Assembly: GCF_964213995.1 (NCBI RefSeq)
Contig: NW_027590629.1
Coordinates: 62,001 to 126,000, forward strand
DNA length: 64,000 nucleotides
Direction: 5' to 3'
Origin: Mustelus asterias
Lineage: Eukaryota
Under the pieces are notes generated by a model. It was not told where the DNA came from. It saw only the letters and a list, made by a program, of their open reading frames with translations, and did no database searches. This document shows positions 16,860 to 57,582 of this stretch, one piece after another; position 1 is the first letter of the stretch; the number at the start of each line of letters is the position of its first letter. Both the position numbers and the translations under genes were made by a program.

Positions 16860-19480
16860 ACTAGGAACAGGAGTAGGCTACTCAGCTCCTCGAACTCGCC
16901 CCGCCGTTCAATAACGTCATGGCCTATCTGTAACCTTATTCCATGTACCTGCCCTAGGCCCATATCCCTTGGTAACCCTGTTCAATAAAAAAAGCTATCT
17001 CAGACGACAACTTCACAATTGAACCAGCACCCACCAGCTTTTGAAGAAGAGAGTTCCAAACTTGCACCGCTCTCTGCGTGTAGAAATGCTTTCTATCAAC
17101 TCTCCGGCATGGCTTGACCCTATTTAAAAAATATATATATGGCCCTTTCTTCTAGTGGAAACATTTCATCCTGATTCGGCCTGTCCTTCCCTGCAAAGAC
17201 TTTGTAGATCTCTGTCAGAGCACTCTTCAAACTTCTGAATTCGAGAGAAAAAGTCTTAATTGTTTAATTTCTCCTCGCAACCTAATCCCTTAAGACCAGG
17301 TATAATTCTGATAAACCTGCATTGAACACCCTCCAGGGCCAACATATTTCCGAAGTGTGTGGCCCATACCTGCTCACAGTGCTCTAATTGGTGTCTAACA
17401 AGGATTTTGCACAATTGCAGCACAACAAGGGTGAGGTTAGGGCCGGTCAAGGACAGTAGTGGGAACTTGTGTATGGAGTCAGTAGAGATAGGCGAGGTGA
17501 TGAATGAATACTTTTCATCAGTGTTCACCAAGGAGAGGGGCCATGTTTTTGAGGAAGAGAAGGTGTTACAGGCTAATAGGCTGGAGGAAATAGATGTTCG
17601 GAGGGAGATGTCCTGGCAGTTTTGAATAAACTGAAGGTCGATAAGTCCCCTGGGCCTGATGAAATGTATCCTAGGATTCTTTGGGAGGCAAGGGATGAGA
17701 TTGCAGAGCCTTTGGCTTTGATCTTGGGGTCCTCGCTGTCCACAGGGATGGTGCCAGAGGACTGGAGAATGGCCAATGTTGTTCCTCTGTTTAAGAAAGG
17801 GAATTGAAATGACCCTGGTAATTATAGACCGGTTAGTCTTTCTTCAGTGGTTGGTAAATTGATGGAAAAAGTCCTTAGGGATGGGATTTACGACCATTTA
17901 GAAAGATGCGGATTAATCCGGGATAGTCAGCACGGATTCGTGAAGGGCAAGTCGTGCCTCACAAATTTGATCGAATTTTTTGAGGAGGTAATTAAGTGTG
18001 TTGATGAAGGTAGGGCAGTTGATGTCATATACATGGATTTTAGTAAGGGGTTTGATAAGGTCCCCCATGGTCAGCTTATGATGAAAGTAAGGAGGTGTGG
18101 GATAGAGGGAAAGTTGGCCGATTGGATAGCTAACTGGCTGTCTGATCGAAGACAGAGGGTGGTGGTGGATGGAAAATTTTCGGACTGGAGGCAGATTGCT
18201 AGCGGAGTGCCACAGGGATCAGTGCTTGGTCCTCTGCTCTTTGTGATTTTTATTCATGACTTAGAGGAGGGGGCTGAAGGGTGGATCAGTAAATTTGCTG
18301 ATGACACCAGGATTGGTGGAGTAGTGGATGAGGTGGAGGGCTGTTGTGGGCTGCAAAGAGACATAGATAGGATGCAAAGCTGGGCTGAAAAATGGCAAAT
18401 GGAGTTTAAGCCAGATGAATGTGAGGTGATTCATTTTGGTAGGACTAATTTAAATGTGGATTACAGGGTCAAAGGTAGGGTTCTGAAGACTGTGGAAGGA
18501 CAGAGAGATCTTGGGGTCCATATCCACAGATCTCTAAAGGTTGCCACTCAAGTGGATAGAGCTGTGAAGAAGGCCTATAGTGTGTTAGCTTTTATTAACA
18601 GGGGGTTGGAGTTTAAGAGCCGTGGGGTTATGCTGCAACTGTACAGGACCTTGGTGAGACCACATTTGGAGTATTGTGTGCAGTTCTGGTCACCTCACTG
18701 TAAGAAGGATGTGGAAGTGCTGGAAAGAGTGCAGAGGAGATTTACCAGGATGCTGCCTGGTTTGGAGGGTAGGTCTTATGAGGAAAGGTTGACGGAGCTA
18801 GGGCTGTTCTCTCTGGAGCGGAGGAGGCTGAGGGGAGACTTAATAGAGGTTTATTAAATGATGACGGGGATAGATAGAGTGAACGTTCAAAGAATCTTTC
18901 CTCGGGTGGATGGAGCTATTACAAGGGGGCATAACTATAGGGTTCGTGGTGGGAGATATAGGAAGGATATCAGAGGTAGGTTCTTTACGCAGAGAGTGGT
19001 TGGGGTGTGGAATGGACTGCCTGCAGTGATAGTGGAGTCAGACACTTTAGGAACATTTAAGCGGTTATTGGATAGGCACATGGAGCACACCAGGATGATA
19101 GGGAGTGGGATAGCTTGATCTTGGTTTCAGATAAAGCTCGGCACAACATCGTGGGCCGAAGGGCCTGTTCTGTGCTGTACTGTTCTATGTTCTATGTTAC
19201 ACCTGCATCTCTATACTCCAGTCCTTTACATATGAAGGCCAGCATTCCATTGGCCTTCTTGACTATTTTCTGCATCAGTTCGTGACATTTTAAGAAGCTA
19301 TGCACCTGAACCTCCAAATCTCGCTGGCCATTCACTGAATTTAACATTGTGCCTTTCAAAAAAATGCCTTGATCTATATCACTTGGATATTTGACTTTTC
19401 TTGCCATTATCTACGCCGTTAATGAATGTTGTAAATAATTGAGGCCCCAAGACAGATTCCTGCTGGACACCACTTAACCT
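16860..19480 (-). mobile_element. Old CR1 LINE fragment (host of nested + strand CR1)
   Basis: - strand peptides QRDLEVQVHSFLK..KKANGMLAFI (19192-19407) continue as LVRHQLEHCEQVW..ALEGVQCRF (17256-17420). Confidence 0.85.
17427..19198 (+). mobile_element. CR1 LINE, 5'-truncated, RT region with few disablements
   Basis: KSPGPD, QHGF, DFSKGFDKV, GVPQGSVLGP, FADD motifs; stops at 17805 and 18855; TGTTCTATGTTCTATG tail. Confidence 0.95.
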
Positions 19481-25569: not shown

Positions 25570-25642
25570 GCAGACAGCGAGGAATTGAACCTGGTATCTA
25601 TTGATCCATAGTCAGACACGTCATCCATTGCGCCACCGGGAC
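25570..25642 (-). pseudogene. tRNA-Arg(ACG)-derived pseudogene (anticodon decayed to ATG)
   Basis: - strand GTCCCGGTGGCGCAATGGATGACGTGTCTGACTATGGATCAATAGATACCAGGTTCAATTCC aligns with the gene at 57510. Confidence 0.9.
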
Positions 25643-28600
25643 ACATTTCTTTCAAATCTCCGGAATCCGCAGTAGTTTGCACTATTCATTCTCTGGATTT
25701 GAGCACCACTGACAAAGTCAGCATTAATTGCCCATCCTGAGAAGGCGTTTGTGAACCATCTTTTTGAAACAAATAGGCCCTCTGGGCGGTTTTATTTGTG
25801 TTTGACTTTCTGCAGAAATTTTGAAACACCTAAATGGCTCTTTCAGCAATTTCAGAGACACTTCAGAGTCAACTTCATCACTGTGGAACTGGAGTCACAT
25901 GTAGAAGAGATAGAGTAAACATAGATTCTTATTCATTCGTGGGACTTGGGTGTCACTGGCTAGCCAGCATTTGGTGCCCATCCCTAGTTGCCCTTGGGGG
26001 GAAGTTGAGAGGTAACCACATTGCTGTGACTCGGGAGTCACGTGTAGGTCAGACAAGCTAAGGACGGCAGATTTCTTTCCCTGAAGGGACATTAGTGAAC
26101 CAGATGCTGTTTTACAACAATCAACAATGGTCCCAGTCATCAATAGATTCTTAGTTCCAGATATTATTTATTGAATTCAAATTCCACCATCTGCCGTGGC
26201 GGGATTGAATCCAGATCGTCAGAAGATAGCTGAACATTAAGTACATCGAAACCAGGAGCCGGAGAAGGCCATTCGAGCCTGATCCGTCATTCATCATGAT
26301 CATGGATGATTTCCTATCTAAAGGCCACATCATTGCATTCTGTCCACACCCCTTGATAGCATTAAAATCTAATCACAAACCTATTTATTTCTTGAATATA
26401 TGCAGTGATATGGCATCCATAGCCTTCTGTGCTGGATCACTCCGCATGTTTACTAGGCTCTGAAGCGAAGAGAACTTTCCTCATTTCTGTCCGAAATTGG
26501 CTACCCTGTCTCTTGAAGCTTCATCCCTTGTTTGAAACTCCCAAACCAGCGAAAGTATCCTTCCCTCACCTAGCCTGCCCAGCTCTGTTAGAAATCAGTT
26601 AATTATTTATACGTTTATTTATTATTAATGTCACAAGTAGGCATATATTGACAATGCAAAACGATATTGGGAAAATGCCCTGAGGCCACAGTCCAGCGCC
26701 TGTTCGAGTACACTGAGGGAAAATTTAGCATGGCCAATGCACCTAACCAGCACGTCTTTCCGACTGTGAGAGGAAACCGGTGCACCCGAAGGAAACCCAC
26801 GCAGACATGGGGACAATGTGCAGACAGTGGCCCAAGCTGGAAATCGAATCTGAGTTCCTGGCGCTAGCCACTGTGCTGCAGTGCCACCCTCATTTTATAT
26901 GTTTAATATGTTTCAATCACAAATTTATATGTTTCACCCAGATCCCCTTTCATTCTTCCAAATTCAAGTGAATCCATGTGGTGGAGATGCCAGTGTTGAA
27001 CTGCGATGAGTACGGTAAGAAGTCTCACAACACCAGGTTAAAATGCAGCAGGTTTATTTGGAATCACGAGCTTTCGGATGCGCCGCTCCTTCATTAGATC
27101 AGTCAAGTGAATACAGGCCCAACCGAATCAGTCTCGCCTCCTAGGACAGTCCCACCAATTCCGGTATCAGTTGTACTCCCCACAGACCCTTTCTTATTTA
27201 GCGCGATCAGAACTACACGCACTACACCGGGCGTGGTCCTATGAAGGGCCAGCATAACTGCAATAAGACTTCCCTAATTCCGAACTCAAATCTTCGTGCA
27301 AAGAAGGCCTTCCTAATTGCTTTCTGTACATGCCTCTCCAATTTCATTGACTGGTGGACAAGGACACATAGATCCATTTGTACATCGCACTTCCTAATAT
27401 ATGTTGCTTTCTGCTTTATACACCAGTATATAACTGCACAGTTAGTTACATTTACTGCATCTGCCACTTGTTCACTCATTCACTCAACTTGTCCAGATCA
27501 CATTGAAGCCTCATTTCATCCTCCGCACAGCTCATACTTCCACCCAGTTATGTATCGCCAACCCTTTTGAACATGTTAATTTGATTCCCTCATCCAGATC
27601 CCACAGTTATACAGCGCCAAGGACCGGCTTGGGTCACTGTCTGTACAGAGTCTGCACGTTCTCCCCATGTCGATATGGCTTTCTTCCGGGTGTTCCGGTT
27701 TCCTCCCACAGTCCGAAAGACATTCTGGCTGGGTGCATTGGTCATGCTTAATTCTCCCTCAGTGTACACAAACAGGGGCTGGAATGTGACGACTCGGGGA
27801 TTTTCACAGTAGCTTCATTGCAGTGATAACATAAGCCTATTTGTGACTAATGAATAAATTTAAAAAGTTGGCACCCTGGGCAACCCCACTATTCGCTGAC
27901 TGCCACTCGGAAAAAAGACCCATTTATTTCCACTCTCTTGCTTCTTATCTGTCAACGAATTCTATACCTATGCCAATACTTTACTCCCCATCTCGCTTGC
28001 TTTATTTTGGCCTCCTAATAATTTATGAAGAACCATCTTAAATGTCTTCTTGAAGTGCAAATACACCATGTACACTGGTCCCACCTTGCCTATCCCATTA
28101 TTTGCATTCTCAAAGAACGCAAGTAAGTTTGTTAAGAATGGCGTCTTTATTAAGCCCATGCTGGGTTTATCAAATTCCGTTAATGCTTTCCAAATATTTT
28201 GCTGTCATGTCTTATATAAGTTTCAAACAACTTCGGTGATACTAAAGTCAGGCTGTAATTCATCATTTTTACTCTCCCGTCCTTTGTATACATTGAGGTG
28301 ACATTTGTCACCCTCCAATCTGTAGGAACTGTTCCAGAGTTTATAGAATTTTAGAAGATGACCACCAATGCATCCAATATTTCCAGGGTCATTTCCTTTC
28401 ATACTCTGGGATGTAGATTATCAGGCCCGAGTGACTTATTAGCATTTAACCCCATTAATTTCCCCAGCATGATTCTCCTACTAATACTGGTTTTCTACAA
28501 TGCCGTCTTCCAACTCGCCCCTTAGTTCCCTATCATTTCTGGGAGGATAGTTGTGTCCTCTTTTATGAAGGTGATGTCAAACTTTGTGTTCGATTCATCC

Positions 28601-28762: not shown

Positions 28763-31315
28763 AATAAGAACATAAGAACATAAGAAATAGGAGCAGGAGT
28801 AGGCCATCTAGCCCCTCGAGCCTGCCCCGCCATTCAATAAGATCATGGCTGATCTGACGTGGATCAGTACCACTTACCCGCCTGATCCCCATAACCCTTA
28901 ATTCCCTTACCGATCAGGAATCCATCCATCCGCGCTTTAAACATATTCAGCGAGGTAGCCTCCACCACCTCAGTGGGCAGAGAATTCCAGAGATTCACCA
29001 CCCTCTGGGAGAAGAAGTTCCTCCTCAACTCTGTCTTAAACCGACCCCCCTTTATTTTGAGGCTGTGTCCTCTAGTTTTAACTTCCTTACTAAGTGGAAA
29101 GAATCTCTCCGCCTCCACCCTATCCAGCCCCCGCATTATCTTATAAGTCTCCATAAGATCCCCCCTCATCCTTCTAAACTCCAACGAGTACAAACCCAAT
29201 CTCCTCAGCCTCTCCTCATAATCCAAACCCCTCCTCTCCGGTATCAACCTGGTGAACCGTCTCTGCACTCCCTCCAATGCCAATATATCCTTCCTCATAT
29301 AAGGGGACCAATACTGCACACAGTATTCCAGCTGCGGCCTCACCAATGCCCTGTACAGGTGCATCAAGACATCCCTGCTTTTATATTCTATCCCCCTCGC
29401 AATATAGGCCAACATCCCATTTGCCTTCTTGATCACCTGTTGTACCTGCAGACTGGGCTTTTGCGTCTCATGCACAAGGACCCCCAGGTCCCTTTGCACG
29501 GTAGCATATTTTAATTTGTTTCCATTGAGATAGTAATCCCATTTGGTATTATTTCCTCCAAAGTGTATAACCTCGCATTTCTCAACGTTATACTTCATTT
29601 GCCATATCCTCGCCCACTCACTCAGCCTGTCCAAATCTCTCTGCAGATCTTCTCCGTCCTCCACACGATTCACTTTTCCACTTATCTTTGTGTCGTCTGC
29701 AAACTTCGTTACCCTACACTCCGTCCCCTCCTCCAGATCATCTATATAAATGGTAAACAGTTGCGGCCCGAGTACCGATCCCTGCGGCACGCCACTAGTT
29801 ACCTTCCTCCAACCGGAAAAACACCCATTTATTCCGACTCTTTGCTTCCTGTCGGATAGCCAGTCCCCAATCCACTTTAACACACTACCCCCAACTCCGT
29901 GTGCCCTAATCTTCTTCAGCAGCCTTTTATGGGGCACCTTATCAAACGCCTTTTGGAAATCCAAAAACACCGCATCCACCGGTTCTCCTCCATCAACCGC
30001 CCTCGTCACATCTTCATAAAAATCCAACATGTTCGTCAAGCACGACTTTCCCCTCATGAATCCATGCTGCGTCTGATTGATCGAACCATTTCTATCCAGA
30101 TGCCCTGCTATCTCCTCTTTAATAATGGATTCCAGCATTTTCCCTACTACAGACGTTAAGCTGACCGGCCTATAGTTACCCGCCTTTTGTCTCCTTCCTT
30201 TTTTAAACAGCGGCGTAACATTAGCCGTTTTCCAATCAACCGGCACTACCCCAGAATGCAACGAGTTTTGATAAATAATCACTAACGCCTCCACTATTAC
30301 CTCTGACATTTCTTTCAATACCCTGGGATGCATTCCATCCGGACCCGGGGACTTGTCCACCTTCAGTCCCATTAGTCTACCCAGCACTGCCTCTCTGGTA
30401 ACATTAATTGTATTAAGTATTTCTCCTGCTGCCAACCCTCTATCGTTAATATTTGGCAAACTATTTGTGTCCTCCGCCGTGAAAACCGACACAAAAAGCT
30501 TATTTAAAGACTCAGCCATATCCTCATTTCCCACTATTAACTCCCCCCTCTCGTCCTCCAAGGGTCCAACATTCACTCTAGCCACTCTATTCCTTTTTAT
30601 ATATTTATAAAAACTTTTACTATCATTTTTTATATTAATTGCTAGCCTAGCTTCATAGTCTATCCTTCCTTTCTTTATCGCTTTCTTAGTCTCTCTTTGT
30701 TGTTTCTTAAATTTTTCCCAATCACTTGTTTCTCCACTATTTTTGGCCACTCTGTACGCAGCTGTTTTTATTTTAATACTCTCCTTTATTTCCTTCGTTA
30801 TCCACGGCTGGTTCTCCCTTTTCTTACAATCCTTGTTTTTTGCTGGAATATATTTTTGCTGAGAACTGAAAAGGATCTCCTTAAAAATCCTCCACTGTTC
30901 CTCAGCTATCCTACCTGCCAGCCTGCTCTCCCAGTCTACCTTAGCCAATTCATCCCTCATCCTATCATATTTCCCTCTGTTCAAACAGAGGACACTGGTT
31001 TGAGACCAAACTTTCTCCTCTTCCATCTGAATCAGAAATTCGACCATATTGTGGTCACTAGACCCAAGAGGGTCCTTCACAATAAGATCCTTAATTCTAC
31101 CTACCTCGTTACACAATACCAGATCCAAAATAGCTCGTTCCCTCGTCGGTTCCGTAACATGCTGTTCAAGGAAACTATCCCGACAGCATTCTAAGAACTC
31201 TTCCTCCATTCCACCCTTACCGACTTGAGTCTGCCAGTCAATGTGCATGTTGAAGTCCCCCATGATTATTGCCGTTCCGTTTTTACACGCATCCCTTATC
31301 TGCTTGTTTATAGCT
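28763..31315 (-). mobile_element. Young CR1 LINE, 5'-truncated
   Basis: Uninterrupted ORF2, 3' UTR and (TTCTTATG)n tail at 28763-28790. Confidence 0.97.
28864..31263 (-). CDS. CR1 ORF2 fragment: C-terminal part of APE endonuclease plus complete reverse transcriptase (799 aa)
   Basis: GDFN and SDH endonuclease motifs; KSPGPDG, NYRPVSLTS, QHGF, DFQKAFDKV, GVPQGSVLGP, FADD; N-terminal endonuclease half missing. Confidence 0.95.
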   Translation of the reverse strand: MGDFNMHIDWQTQVGKGGMEEEFLECCRDSFLEQHVTEPTRERAILDLVLCNEVGRIKDLIVKDPLGSSDHNMVEFLIQMEEEKVWSQTSVLCLNRGKYDRMRDELAKVDWESRLAGRIAEEQWRIFKEILFSSQQKYIPAKNKDCKKRENQPWITKEIKESIKIKTAAYRVAKNSGETSDWEKFKKQQRETKKAIKKGRIDYEARLAINIKNDSKSFYKYIKRNRVARVNVGPLEDERGELIVGNEDMAESLNKLFVSVFTAEDTNSLPNINDRGLAAGEILNTINVTREAVLGRLMGLKVDKSPGPDGMHPRVLKEMSEVIVEALVIIYQNSLHSGVVPVDWKTANVTPLFKKGRRQKAGNYRPVSLTSVVGKMLESIIKEEIAGHLDRNGSINQTQHGFMRGKSCLTNMLDFYEDVTRAVDGGEPVDAVFLDFQKAFDKVPHKRLLKKIRAHGVGGSVLKWIGDWLSDRKQRVGINGCFSGWRKVTSGVPQGSVLGPQLFTIYIDDLEEGTECRVTKFADDTKISGKVNRVEDGEDLQRDLDRLSEWARIWQMKYNVEKCEVIHFGGNNTKWDYYLNGNKLKYATVQRDLGVLVHETQKPSLQVQQVIKKANGMLAYIARGIEYKSRDVLMHLYRALVRPQLEYCVQYWSPYMRKDILALEGVQRRFTRLIPERRGLDYEERLRRLGLYSLEFRRMRGDLMETYKIMRGLDRVEAERFFPLSKEVKTRGHSLKIKGGRFKTELRRNFFSQRVVNLWNSLPTEVVEATSLNMFKARMDGFLIGKGIKGYGDQAGKWY

Positions 31316-31959
31316 TTGGTCTTCTTTTGTTGAATTCTAAAACGGTTCTAAACCTCAGGCTTGTTGCTTCTTCTGGTAAATTTTACATATTTTAGAACAA
31401 AGAAATAAAATTTCCTCTCGTGAAAGACATTCGAGAAGAAGATGAGCTTTGACGAAGTATGATGTTCACAGTAACTTCATGACAGTGTGAATGTAAGCCT
31501 ACATGTGACTAAGAAATAAACTTTAAACCTTTAAACTTTAATTGCACACGATGTTTGTTTCAGCTTAATCAATTAATTGAATTGAAATTCCCCACCTGGG
31601 GGAACCTTGAGGTAAATGCTCTGGGGAATTGGAATTACTGTCCCAGAGCATTTACCTCAAGGTTCTGGAATGCTAGCTTAATAATGACATTGCTATACTA
31701 CCCCGCAGGCAGGAATATCATCACTTCTAATAATGGAATAACTGAACATTCAGCACTGAGTCACAGGTTGGATCACGTGCTCAGGTGGATGTTGTGGGAA
31801 TTGAACACATTACCATTTGACTCAAAAATTATGTTGTTTTCACTGAGATTAGACTGTTAACTGACTACAGTTTGTGTCTTGACATGATGACATTTAGCTC
31901 AGTGCGCCTAAAGGCTGAGATCTGTGTCCAATATTATACGATACATTTATACATTATAC

Positions 31960-34758: not shown

Positions 34759-34900
34759 NNNNNNNNNNNNNNNNNNNNNNNNNNNNNNNNNNNNNNNNNN
34801 NNNNNNNNNNNNNNNNNNNNNNNNNNNNNNNNNNNNNNNNNNNNNNNNNNNNNNNNNNNNNNNNNNNNNNNNNNNNNNNNNNNNNNNNNNNNNNNNNNNN
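34759..34900. other. Assembly gap (142 N)
   Basis: Run of n. Confidence 1.
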
Positions 34901-51370: not shown

Positions 51371-51924
51371 GAATCGATCGGTTTGGGAATCTATCACTTA
51401 GTTTACTTGTCTCTGTGTTGATTCTGGGCAGTATCCGAGGCTTCCAGTGAGCACGGAGGTGGAGGTATTCATGCATTATCATGGTTAGCAATGCAAACTA
51501 GTAGGTGTCAGAAATCTGCAGAATAATTCTGGATTTATAAAGAGAGACGTTAGAATTGATGTCACTTTCTGGGCATATATCCATATGGTTATATATCCTT
51601 ATTCGTGTTGGTCTTTCCACGGGGCCGTGCGTGTATCTGTTCTCCGCATGTCTGCTGGGTTTCCTCGGATGCTGTGGTTTCCTCCCACAGTCCAAAGATG
51701 TGCAGATTAGGTGGATTGGCCGTGATAAATTGACCCTCGTGTCAGGGAGATTATGTGTGCGGTTACGGGAATAGGGCCTCGGTGGAATTGTGGTCGGTAC
51801 AGAGTCGCTGGGCCGAATGGCCTCCTTCTGTACTGTAGGGGTTCTATGATTCTATGATCTCCAGATGTGTCAGTCTTTGCAGGTTGCCGTGTGTGTACCT
51901 GTTTCCAATATCCGGCTGTGCTGT

Positions 51925-51938
51925 CCGCGGGAGGGCGC
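51925..51938 (+). promoter_or_regulatory. Candidate CTCF site upstream of V segment 1
   Basis: CCGCGGGAGGGCGC fits the CC(A/G)C..G(A/G)GGGCGC core, ~185 bp 5' of the ATG. Confidence 0.45.
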
Positions 51939-52120
51939 TCTCTGATCACTTATGAAAGATCACGATCCCCTTCTGCAGGAAGCGACTGTTTGAAGGTGTA
52001 AAGATGGGCGGAGAGATGGAGTCACCTTCGATCTCATAACATCCCCCTGACTGTTTCAACTTCTCCAATTGCAGATTTGATGCGGACAGTGATCAGTCTC
52101 TCTGTTTCTGAACTCGAACC

Positions 52121-52597
52121 ATGGGGGTGAAACTCTGTCTCACTCTGGTTATTGTCCTGATTACAGGTCTGTCATTTTGAACTTCTGCGTGAACTCTGCC
52201 AGTCACCACATTCATTCCCCATTTCCATCTCGAGGGGATTATTCCGTTGTTGTTACTCCTTCTAACCCACTGCGTGTCTGTTCCCTATTTTCAGACATGA
52301 GTAACGGTGACTCAGTGTCCCAGTCAGAACCAGGAGTTGAAGCAGCAGAGGGTGAAGAATCAGCAATACCCTGCAGTTACTCGGGACAGAGTTTAACTAT
52401 ACAACATTACCTGTTCTGGTATCGCCAGTATACACACCGAGCTCCTCGTTAACTGCTCAGAGCCGCTAATTTACCGAAACGGCTCCAGGTTTTGAACACT
52501 GCAGCGGGAATCTCAACCTGAAACAAAGCACTTTTCACTTGCCCATGGAAGATTTGAAGGTGACAGATAGCGCCGAGTATTACTGTGCACTGAGAGC
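52121..52597 (+). pseudogene. TCR alpha/delta-type V segment 1 (pseudogene)
   Basis: Leader 52121-52166 MGVKLCLTLVIVLIT, GT-AG intron 52167-52294, V exon GDSVSQ..IPCSYS..LFWYRQY..DSAEYYCALR; TAA at 52450-52452 plus a frameshift before APGFEH. Confidence 0.93.
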
Positions 52598-52636
52598 CAC
52601 AGTACATGAAGCTTCATACAAAATCTGGCACAGGTC
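52598..52636 (+). other. Recombination signal sequence of V1 (degenerate 23-RSS)
   Basis: Heptamer CACAGTA 52598-52604, 23-nt spacer, poor nonamer GCACAGGTC. Confidence 0.7.
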
Positions 52637-53159
52637 GATAGTCAATGATTCATTGTCAGGACAACACATGGGGTTAACCTTCAGAGAAAATTTACTCATA
52701 GTGAACGTGACAATACAGTCCCGTCTGAGTGTTTTCTCTCACTGAGGTTACTGATTGTCACTGTTGGGAAATTTGACATGTTTTTACTCATCTTACTATC
52801 ACATCAAGTCCAATCGCTCCCCGATCCTTTCACACAAACCCTCAGATCTCCCAGGTGAACCATGTCATCAGACAGACCACACCTTTCAAAAGTGATCAAA
52901 TATCAAAGGCAGGCTCAGAGTTGTCACATGTTGAAGTCGCTGGGTTAAAATTATTGACTGTAACATGTGTACTTTATAAACAAAAAACCCCAGTTGCAAA
53001 CAGTCGAGGTAACAATATTGGGCGGATATTTTGCTGGTGCTTAAAGTCCACAAATGCTGATGCGGTGAGTTATTTAAACAATTTCGGCTTTCACTCGAGG
53101 TGTCAGAACTGCTTTGTAGAAAGTTAAACAATTTTTATTTTGCTGCCTAATAACGTGCA

Positions 53160-53249
53160 GGCTCGTTGGTCTAGGGGTATGATTCTCGCTTAGGGGATCT
53201 CGCCCCGTTAGCATGCAAGAGGTCCCGGGTTCAAATCCCGGACGAGCCC
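53160..53249 (+). tRNA. tRNA-Pro(AGG) with 18-nt intron (53196-53213)
   Basis: Exons match canonical vertebrate tRNA-Pro except one G>A at 53217 in the anticodon stem; anticodon AGG 53192-53194; insert lies between nt 37 and 38; TTTT at 53263-53266. Confidence 0.88.
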
Positions 53250-53569
53250 CTCATTTATTTCGTTTTGACCAAAATATTGTGTTCAAAAGGAGATATTTTG
53301 ATTTGTTTAAGGTGCAAACGGCGGGATGGCTTTCTGCTGACTGGCTCCGAAAAAGAGTCATAAAGGCACAGAATTTTGCAGCACGGATAGAGCCCACTGG
53401 GACACCCACACGGCAGGCGCGGACACCCATCATGTCTGCGCCTGCCACGTGACAGCTGGACGGGAAGCGTTAGTTCTGATTCTCGCTCCACAGATACTTC
53501 CAGAAATACTGACATAACCCAGTATTTTCTGTTTTTATTTCAGATTTTGAAAGTCCGCAGTGTGCTGCA

Positions 53570-54200
53570 TTATATCAGACTTTGGGCTGACAAGTGGCAA
53601 GTAACATTCGCGCCACACAAATGCAAGACAATGTCCATCACCAATAAGAGAAAATCTAACCACCGCCTCTTGACAGTCAATAGATTTTCCATCACTGAAT
53701 CCCCCATTGTTAACATCCTTACGGTTACCATTGACCAGATACTCAATTGGACTCGCCACATAAACACAATGGCTACAAGAGCAGGTCAGAGGCCAGGAAT
53801 ACTGTGGCGAATAACTCACCGCCTGACTCCCCAGAGCCTGTCCACCATCTACAAGGCACAAGTCAGGAGCGTGATGGAATATTCCCACCTCGCCTGGATG
53901 GGTGCAGCTCCAACAACACACAAGAAGATTGACATCATCCAGGACAAAGCAGCCCGCTTGATTGGCACCACATCCACAAGCATTCAATCCCACCACAGCC
54001 GATGCTCAGTAGCAGCGATGTGTATCTAAAAGATGCACAGTAGCAATTCACCAAAGGTCGGTAGACAGCACCTTTGAAACCCAAGACCACTTCCATCCAG
54101 AAGGAAAAGGGTAGTAGACACATGGGAACATCATCACCTGCAAGTTCTCCTCCAAGTCACTCACCATCCTGACTTGGAATTATGTTGCCATTCCTTCGCA
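53570..54200 (+). mobile_element. CR1/L2-clade LINE 3' fragment
   Basis: ORF 53547-54029 (WADKWQVTFAPHKC, YKAQVRSVMEY, WMGAA). Confidence 0.85.
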
Positions 54201-54294
54201 TGGCCTCATTCTGTGGTGTACTCATTTTCTGGTTTAGTGCGTACCTCACCCTGAGGCCGTGAACCGCAAAGCATTTTCTCATTTCTCATTTCTG

Positions 54295-55025
54295 TCATCT
54301 CTCCCTCAATGTCAACAAAACGGAGATTGTCATTGACTTCAGAAAGCGTCGAGGAGAACATGCCCCTGTCTCCATCAAAGGGAACGAAGTGGAAAGGGTC
54401 GAGAGGTTCAGGTTTTTAGGTCTCCAGATCACCAACAACCTGTCCTGGCCTCCCATGCCGACACTATAGTGAAGAAAGCCCATCAACGCCTCCATTTTCT
54501 CAGAAGACTCAGGAAATTTGGCATGTCAGCTACGACTGTCACCAAGGTTTACAGGTGCACCATAGAAAACATTCTTTCTAGTTGTATCACAGCTTGGTAT
54601 GGCTCCTGCTCTGCCCAAGACCGCAATAAACTACAAAGGGTCGTGAATGTAGCCCAATCCATCACTCAAACCAGCCTCCCATCCATTGATTCTGTCTACA
54701 CTTCCTGCTGCCTCGGCAAAGCAGCCAGCATAGTTAAGGACCCCACGCACCCCACACATTCTCTCTTCCACCTTCTACCTTCGAGAGAAAGATACAGAAG
54801 TCTGAGGTCACGTACTAGCCGACTCAAGAACAGCTTTTGAATGGACATTACCTTGCATTAAGCTGATCTTCCTCTACACCCTGACAATGACTGTAATACC
54901 ACATTCTGCACTCTCCAGTTTCCTTCTCTATGAACAATACGCTTTGTCTGGATAGCGCGCAAGAAAAAATGCTTTTCACTGTATACTAATACATGTGACA
55001 ATAATAAATTAAACCAAATCAAATC
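54295..55025 (+). mobile_element. Rex1/Babar-type LINE 3' fragment
   Basis: KKAHQRLHFLRRLRKFG..YRCTIENILSSCITAWYG..RTSRLKNSF. Confidence 0.85.
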
Positions 55026-57509: not shown

Positions 57510-57582
57510 GGGCCAGTGGCGCAATGGATAACGCGTCTGACTACGGATCAGAAGATTCCAGGTTCGACTCCTGGCTGGCTTG
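57510..57582 (+). tRNA. tRNA-Arg(ACG)
   Basis: Matches canonical vertebrate GGGCCAGTGGCGCAATGGATAACGCGTCTGACTACGGATCAGAAGATTCCAGGTTCGACTCCTGGCTGGCTCG except C72>T (G1-U72); anticodon 57543-57545. Confidence 0.95.

Follow-up and report, generated by a model that had tools for sequence, protein, structure and literature searches.

The window, by which we mean the whole 64,000-nucleotide stretch of Mustelus asterias DNA analyzed here, carries a tRNA-Pro body at 53160-53249 (contig label G000:C597), with the anticodon AGG at 53192-53194 and an insert of 18 nucleotides (53196-53213) between G37 (53195) and U38 (53214). With its intron search enabled and at its default threshold, ARAGORN called this gene tRNA-Pro(agg) with an intron of length 18 at position 38; this call and the sequence itself agree with the preliminary description, which had placed an 18-nt insert exactly at 37/38 of a tRNA-Pro(AGG). 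Run without the intron search, the same program returned Lys-CTT, which we discarded as an artefact, and a run at relaxed threshold, whose 111 calls were mostly spurious, was superseded by the default-threshold intron run. An Rfam scan of the window gave no match to the intron-bearing tRNA-Pro gene. Two mir-3926 Rfam matches at 53407-53451, with a palindrome behind them, lay far under threshold and were rejected.

Table 1. Features at and around the intron-bearing tRNA-Pro gene (window coordinates)
Feature	Position	Strand	Remarks
5' exon of tRNA-Pro(AGG), nt 1-37, with internal A box	53160..53195	+	same sequence as the intact intronless gene L061/L146
Intron at canonical position, 18 nt	53196..53213	+	G -3 (53211) opposite U32, A -4 opposite U33, U -5 opposite A34
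3' exon, nt 38-73, B box 53228-53238	53214..53249	+	A at 53217 (position 41), giving the C29.A41 mismatch
First T4 run past the gene (14 nt away), a likely Pol III terminator	53263..53266	+	function inferred
Inner 5' flank, hypervariable across family copies	53140..53159	+	diversity 0.256 vs 0.047 farther upstream
Duplicated array unit (part) around the gene	51640..54770	+	homology to 29 other loci, ~1.4-3.1 kb, 87-98%, often reaching the edge of the tested stretch
Intronless tRNA-Arg(ACG) neighbor; its family served as negative control	57510..57582	+	
Intronless tRNA-Val(CAC) neighbor, with stem mismatches	47151..47223	-	

Elsewhere in the window, a decayed Arg-ACG-like gene lies on the minus strand at about 25570-25645 (B box at 25591; no ARAGORN or Rfam call). 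Retroelement open reading frames occupy 17808-18857 (+), 28864-31347 (-), and 39873-40715 (-) and include two reverse transcriptases, one of 827 amino acids with an endonuclease domain; a weak GIY-YIG match fell below cut-off. There is a single run of 142 N at 34759-34900.

A DNA similarity search of the 3.68-Gb genome with the window gene gave 40 scored matches among 554 candidates, and the 30 loci fetched from it have kilobases of flank in common with the window (87-98%). Since this common flank extends over kilobases on both sides, the window copy is part of a segmentally duplicated array and not a SINE: it and 29 relatives share flanks and end at the T4 run, whereas tRNA-derived SINEs are dispersed, have flanks unrelated to one another, and carry a body or tail that is not tRNA. 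Genome-wide, a strict Pro pattern matched 142 times with an insert and 9 times without, and a loose pattern 237 times with (84 AGG, 126 TGG, and 27 CGG, 100 of the 126 TGG being among the matches listed) and 14 times without. The nonstandard anticodon GGG was found in none of the 27 insert-bearing matches with C/G-GG. Overlapping duplicates (L058-L063, L112, and off-center matches in L138-L151) were removed before counting, and 133 of the 237 insert-bearing copies were fetched for detailed comparison. The 37/38 position is built into the search pattern, and the counts may be inflated where unplaced contigs repeat haplotypes (pairs 98-100% alike). One further intron-bearing Pro-CGG gene (L038:2390-2479) fell outside the patterns through one stem change, so that in this respect the counts are lower bounds. 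Of 76 genes of Arg-ACG, a control family located in the same arrays, none has an insert, and patterns read backward over the genome gave no match; the insert pattern is therefore not a product of chance. An earlier idea, that the insert is an internal duplication specific to this copy, was dropped in view of so large an insert-bearing family. Such a family had been proposed in the preliminary description, to be given up if the insert were unique to this copy; the insert recurs in 237 Pro matches, and the family is wider than proposed, including TGG and CGG as well as AGG.

Single sequences hold many of these copies: 27 lie on C71, 19 on C85, and two on C19. Many insert-bearing copies are decayed, but exons identical to those of an intronless gene apart from base 34 occur in ten of the 27 on C71 and two of the 19 on C85, where ten more are one base off. 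Among the 107 fetched copies that have no SINE head behind them (see below), 28 match an intronless gene exactly apart from base 34. A search for intronless Pro copies allowing up to three mismatches returned 30: 22 decayed ones and eight that look intact, with each of the three anticodons represented among the eight.

The inserts of the 133 fetched copies are 11-19 nt long (18 nt in 97) and comprise 90 distinct sequences in 23 single-linkage groups. The preliminary description paired U32 with G(-3), U33 with A(-4), and A34 with U(-5), all of which are present in the window copy, and corresponding pairs can form in most distinct introns: 32:-3 in 81 of the 90, 33:-4 in 89, 34:-5 in 77, and 35:-6 in 84. 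It extended the helix through GGGG (53193-96) with CCCC (53203-06); this pairing does form when the cloverleaf stems are forced, but its fourth G is private to the window copy, and position 36 can pair with -7 in only 12 of 90 introns. The family-wide continuation is that of G35 with intron position -6. In the correct register 331 of 360 pairs can form, as against 181 and 194 when the register is slid by one. Intron position -5 follows the anticodon, being T opposite A34 in 34 of 40 introns, A or G opposite U34 in 34 of 36, and G opposite C34 in nine of 14. When introns were grouped into family units, 20 of 26 units paired at 34:-5, where shuffling gave 11.6 (p 0.0008); for coarser families the figures were 12 of 16 and 6.9 (p 0.009). 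These p values are optimistic owing to the common ancestry of the units. The tandem genes L037 and L051, 1.4 kb apart, have nearly the same intron, one with TGG and the other with CGG; this is a recent anticodon switch in which intron position -5 has not yet changed.

The pairings found here agree with the bulge-helix-loop architecture and A-I pair described for pre-tRNAs (PMC10275265; passages of PMC10485636 and PMC6614914). The A-I pair joins C32 or U32 to an antepenultimate A or G of the intron and leaves a 3-nt bulge (PMC10275265; passages of PMC6614914), and its strength matters (passages of PMC6614914). The window copy has U32.G at this place. Nine of the 90 distinct introns have no A-I pair, and the main CGG array family (six distinct introns) has U at -3 and hence none. 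The lengths found fall within the 6-133 nt given for canonical introns in passages of PMC4090602, and complementarity with N33-N35 is seen in 89, 77, and 84 of the 90. The ruler mechanism calls for an intact mature tRNA body, which many family copies have; the window copy has C29.A41 and a predicted misfold. By these sequence-level criteria the feature is a canonical eukaryotic tRNA intron. The genome contains one exon of the TSEN family, a PF01974 match above cut-off (E 3.8e-4).

Among 30 non-redundant copies of the window family, diversity is 0.024 in the exons, 0.227 in the intron, and 0.068 in the 200-nt flanks; the 20 nt just upstream are more diverse still (Table 1). When changes were counted on a tree built from the distal flanks of 28 loci of this family, exons changed at 0.33-0.37 times the background rate per site, the intron at 1.6 times, and the inner 5' flank (20 nt) at 3.1 times. 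Ascertainment favors conserved exons, since the search patterns fix 24 of the 72 exon bases and L001-L030 were the top similarity matches; exon positions outside the search pattern stand at 0.33 times background in the window AGG family. The CGG family has 6.5 times background upstream, 2.7 times in the intron, and 1.45 times at exon positions outside the pattern, and the TGG family with 13-nt introns has 3.1, 2.6, and 0.73 times, respectively, the last not significantly below background. The tree test found no upstream excess in the TGG-18a family (0.36 times, with a background that is probably inflated), in which pairwise diversity is 0.121 upstream as against 0.068 farther out. According to passages of PMC6130373, active tRNA genes are marked by a conserved body together with inner flanks and an intron that are hypervariable, and the hypervariable inner flanks of the window family point to transcription of its genes. 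Public sequencing runs matched at contig level (21 listed, best share 0.35, none at half) provide no evidence for expression or species range.

Retrocopies point the same way. In 26 of the 133 insert-bearing copies, the gene and a short trailer are fused, within 80 nt, to the head of a SINE. Two or fewer exon differences are found in four of these 26 as against 76 of the 107 copies without a SINE head, and in the fused copies similarity to the array genes stops within about 15 nt on either side. Such fusions are as expected of reverse-transcribed pre-tRNA and point to transcription. The SINE head behind many Pro copies looks to us like HE1. A table row of PMC3747384 lists HE1 for both sharks and rays, and this likeness is one reason for taking the genome to be probably that of a shark.

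One decayed intronless copy, L138 on C3, bears a 43-nt trailer segment matching that of the C71 family of intron-bearing TGG genes (88%, E 9e-12) and keeps 4 nt of that family's leader; the sequence that follows it we take, from a motif, to be LINE-like. It is the one among the 22 decayed intronless copies that points to an intron-bearing source, and it lies 5.5 Mb from intronless genes. Because intron position and helix are common to families with unrelated trailers, the intron likely predates the trailer of L138, and L138 has likely lost it. L138 is thus likely a fossil of splicing, from which the intron was removed before reverse transcription, but it could have arisen by a template switch of the reverse transcriptase. 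L138 has no target-site duplication, and none that is convincing was found in seven candidate retrocopies (three 8-mers). The 30 intronless copies with up to three mismatches include no second case like L138.

The remaining decayed intronless copies (L139-L141, L145, L147, L149, L163-L171, and L173-L178) mostly consist of the gene and a short trailer fused to a piece of SINE or LINE, although L175 may be a DNA-level duplicate. They cluster by the intact intronless genes. The distance to one is no more than 2 Mb for 14 of the 21, where chance would give 0.09, and for 18 of the 21 it is no more than 14 Mb on the same chromosome; most carry the trailer of that gene. Inserting retroelements may thus pick up nascent pre-tRNA made at a locus close by. 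In L078, L085, and L171 a decayed Pro copy lies directly 5' of another tRNA-like sequence (Val-like in L078, with His- and Thr-like calls in L085 and a tRNA-like stretch in L171), possibly a product of template switches involving several tRNAs.

We consider it probable, from these sequence patterns, that RNA polymerase III transcribes the Pro intron family, with its AGG, TGG, and CGG members, and that the ordinary TSEN/RtcB pathway removes the introns. The individual steps are drawn from established tRNA biology. Pol III would read through the internal A and B boxes up to the T4 run; the pre-tRNA would fold with a helix between U32-G35 and intron positions -3 to -6 and with a bulge of 3 nt; TSEN, guided by its ruler and the A-I pair, would measure from the tRNA body and cut both intron ends; and RtcB would join the exons, giving the same tRNA as the intronless genes do.

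Two other accounts deny this output. In one, an insertion killed a single Pro gene that the array then amplified, and the eight intact intronless genes make all tRNA-Pro. The copies do sit in recent segmental duplications, many are decayed, every anticodon has intronless genes, and CGG exons are not below the distal background; against this, introns have diverged into unrelated families while exons have stayed identical to those of intronless genes (10 of 27 on C71), the anticodon pairing is kept and covaries, the hypervariable inner flanks point to transcription, and, more weakly, GGG is found in none of the 27 C/G-GG matches. We regard such dead passengers as very improbable. Hardly better placed, and still quite improbable, is a family that is transcribed but poorly spliced, its pre-tRNAs mostly degraded and selection acting on Pol III-bound DNA (as chromatin barriers, for example) and not on tRNA output. 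Retrocopies nearly all keep the intron (26 fused to SINEs with it, one copy without), although those that keep a trailer would be expected to come from early transcripts. The A-I pair is U-A or U.G, or absent as in the CGG array family, and its strength matters (passages of PMC6614914). Yet conservation in the AGG family extends over the whole exon and not the A and B boxes alone (0.33 times background outside the pattern), and covariation at 34:-5 would have no reason unless an RNA helix were used.

The window's own copy must be judged apart from its family. The preliminary description reported a C.A mismatch in the anticodon stem and guessed that this copy may be decaying; the mismatch is real (C29.A41, 53187/53217), and the guess fits both it and the predicted fold. 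A41 is the only exon change in this copy, and the first intron base, G (53196), is found here alone among the 30 closest loci, T standing in the others. Predicted energies, computed without modified bases, put the spliced cloverleaf at -22.1 kcal/mol as against -28.1 for L003, a cost of about 6 kcal/mol for C29.A41. In the predicted free fold of the pre-tRNA (-39.4 kcal/mol), the intron is paired to the D and anticodon arms. This fold lies 10.2 kcal/mol below the cloverleaf-forced one, a gap that ties for second worst among 57 near-intact copies (median 2.8). The mismatch and predicted misfold likely impair this copy, and it is probably not a working gene. That it works despite its changes is doubtful, even with A and B boxes intact, a single exon change, an A-I pair, a T4 run at +14, and the same mismatch in L002 (97.6% identical to the window locus over 3.1 kb).

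As for history, we give a modest preference to a scheme in which a cartilaginous-fish lineage gained two spliced intron families, Pro and Arg-TCG, after the split from bony vertebrates, so that most Pro genes would depend on TSEN, the intron would have co-evolved with anticodon switches, and the genome would hold a DNA fossil of splicing. A single intron gain in a Pro gene of a cartilaginous-fish ancestor would have come first. Duplicated genes that switched anticodon, with intron position -5 changing to match, would then have brought the intron to all anticodons, and segmental duplication would have amplified the genes into arrays subject to birth-and-death turnover. About eight intact intronless genes survive, so the spliced genes would add dosage and would not be the only source; and since the intronless genes cover all three anticodons and yield the same product, splicing need not be essential. 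That the Pro intron may be "lineage-specific" follows from statements in the literature.

In tRNA-Arg(TCG), 59 of 60 pattern matches (on C85 and related contigs; L153-L161) have an insert of 16-22 nt at 37/38, with G at -3 opposite C32 in all (read by eye, with 10 loci in context), and the one intronless match is L152 on C24. Judged on sequence features, this is a second non-standard intron family.

The same splicing mechanism could also have another origin, in an old eukaryotic or chordate Pro intron kept in sharks and lost elsewhere, an account of origin that is compatible with splicing as proposed here and that we think unlikely. In its favor, older databases list a single low-scoring human Pro-AGG prediction that contains an insert. 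Divergence among the intron families is deep, and the two introns of a chromosome-anchored pair on C19 are unrelated to each other, although tRNA introns evolve fast and divergence is no proof of great age. Budding yeast has ten intron-containing tRNA-Pro(UGG) genes (passages of PMC4090602). Against an old intron, passages of PMC12530127 describe introns as essentially absent from metazoan tRNAs outside Tyr-GUA, Ile-UAU, Leu-CAA, and Arg-UCU, so that retention would need many losses. The C19 locus (L064, G000:C19:64524705-64526503), a candidate old locus for dating the intron, has one Pro-AGG gene on each strand. The exons of both are near-perfect, with a D-loop change common to the two; T4 runs follow at +3/+4, and the 18-nt intron of one is unrelated to that of the other. 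An intronless Pro-TGG gene, L172 (G000:C4:147246917), has the same D-loop change and a compensatory 31-39 swap (G-C for C-G).

In recent surveys the metazoan intron set consists of four tRNA types. The Pro family bears on the origin and persistence of eukaryotic tRNA introns. If our reading is true, a vertebrate tRNA intron gain becomes datable, in a genome where one and the same tRNA has genes both with and without the intron. The chemistry of the proposed splicing is ordinary, but tens to hundreds of intron-bearing Pro genes beside about eight intronless ones, all for the same mature tRNA, make direct tests possible: of the time of the gain, of the effect of the intron on modification (e.g., at 34 or 37) or on tissue expression, and of the weakest A-I pair that TSEN accepts (U-A, U.G, or even U.U). 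For annotation, tools blind to introns miscall the insert-bearing Pro genes as Lys or miss them.

In the titles and abstracts of the open-access literature searched, no Pro intron family of a vertebrate or shark is named, and the passages of PMC8450103 add nothing on Pro introns. Abundant intron-containing tRNA loci in shark genomes are reported in passages of the Squalomix preprint (bioRxiv 10.1101/2025.06.08.657570). Its main text names no isotype (0 matches to proline, Pro, isotype, or spliced), and those passages test neither splicing nor selection. Metazoan introns are described in passages of PMC12530127 as prevalent in Tyr-GUA, Ile-UAU, Leu-CAA, and Arg-UCU and essentially absent from other tRNAs, as the preliminary description had it in listing Tyr, Ile, Leu, and Arg without Pro; passages of PMC12168002 agree on the four families and give four spliced types for human. 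By body and anticodon the window gene is Pro and belongs to none of them. The four families are spliced by TSEN and RtcB (passages of PMC12530127 and PMC12168002; PMC10275265), and the shark genes resemble them in a short 37/38 intron, an A-I pair, a short anticodon-intron helix, a 3-nt bulge, and an intron sequence that varies among members. They differ in isotype (Pro, with three anticodons, and also Arg-TCG), in numbering tens to hundreds of copies in segmental arrays, and in that intronless genes with these anticodons persist. Isotype and canonical intron class are shared with tRNA-Pro(UGG) of budding yeast (10 genes; passages of PMC4090602), which is fungal, has one anticodon and an intron in all copies, and uses a different ligase pathway. 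The gain of an intron in Ala-UGC of Lachancea thermotolerans (passages of PMC4090602) is similar in placing a canonical intron in an isotype that is intronless in relatives, whereas the shark family is that of a vertebrate, involves three anticodons, and has been greatly amplified.
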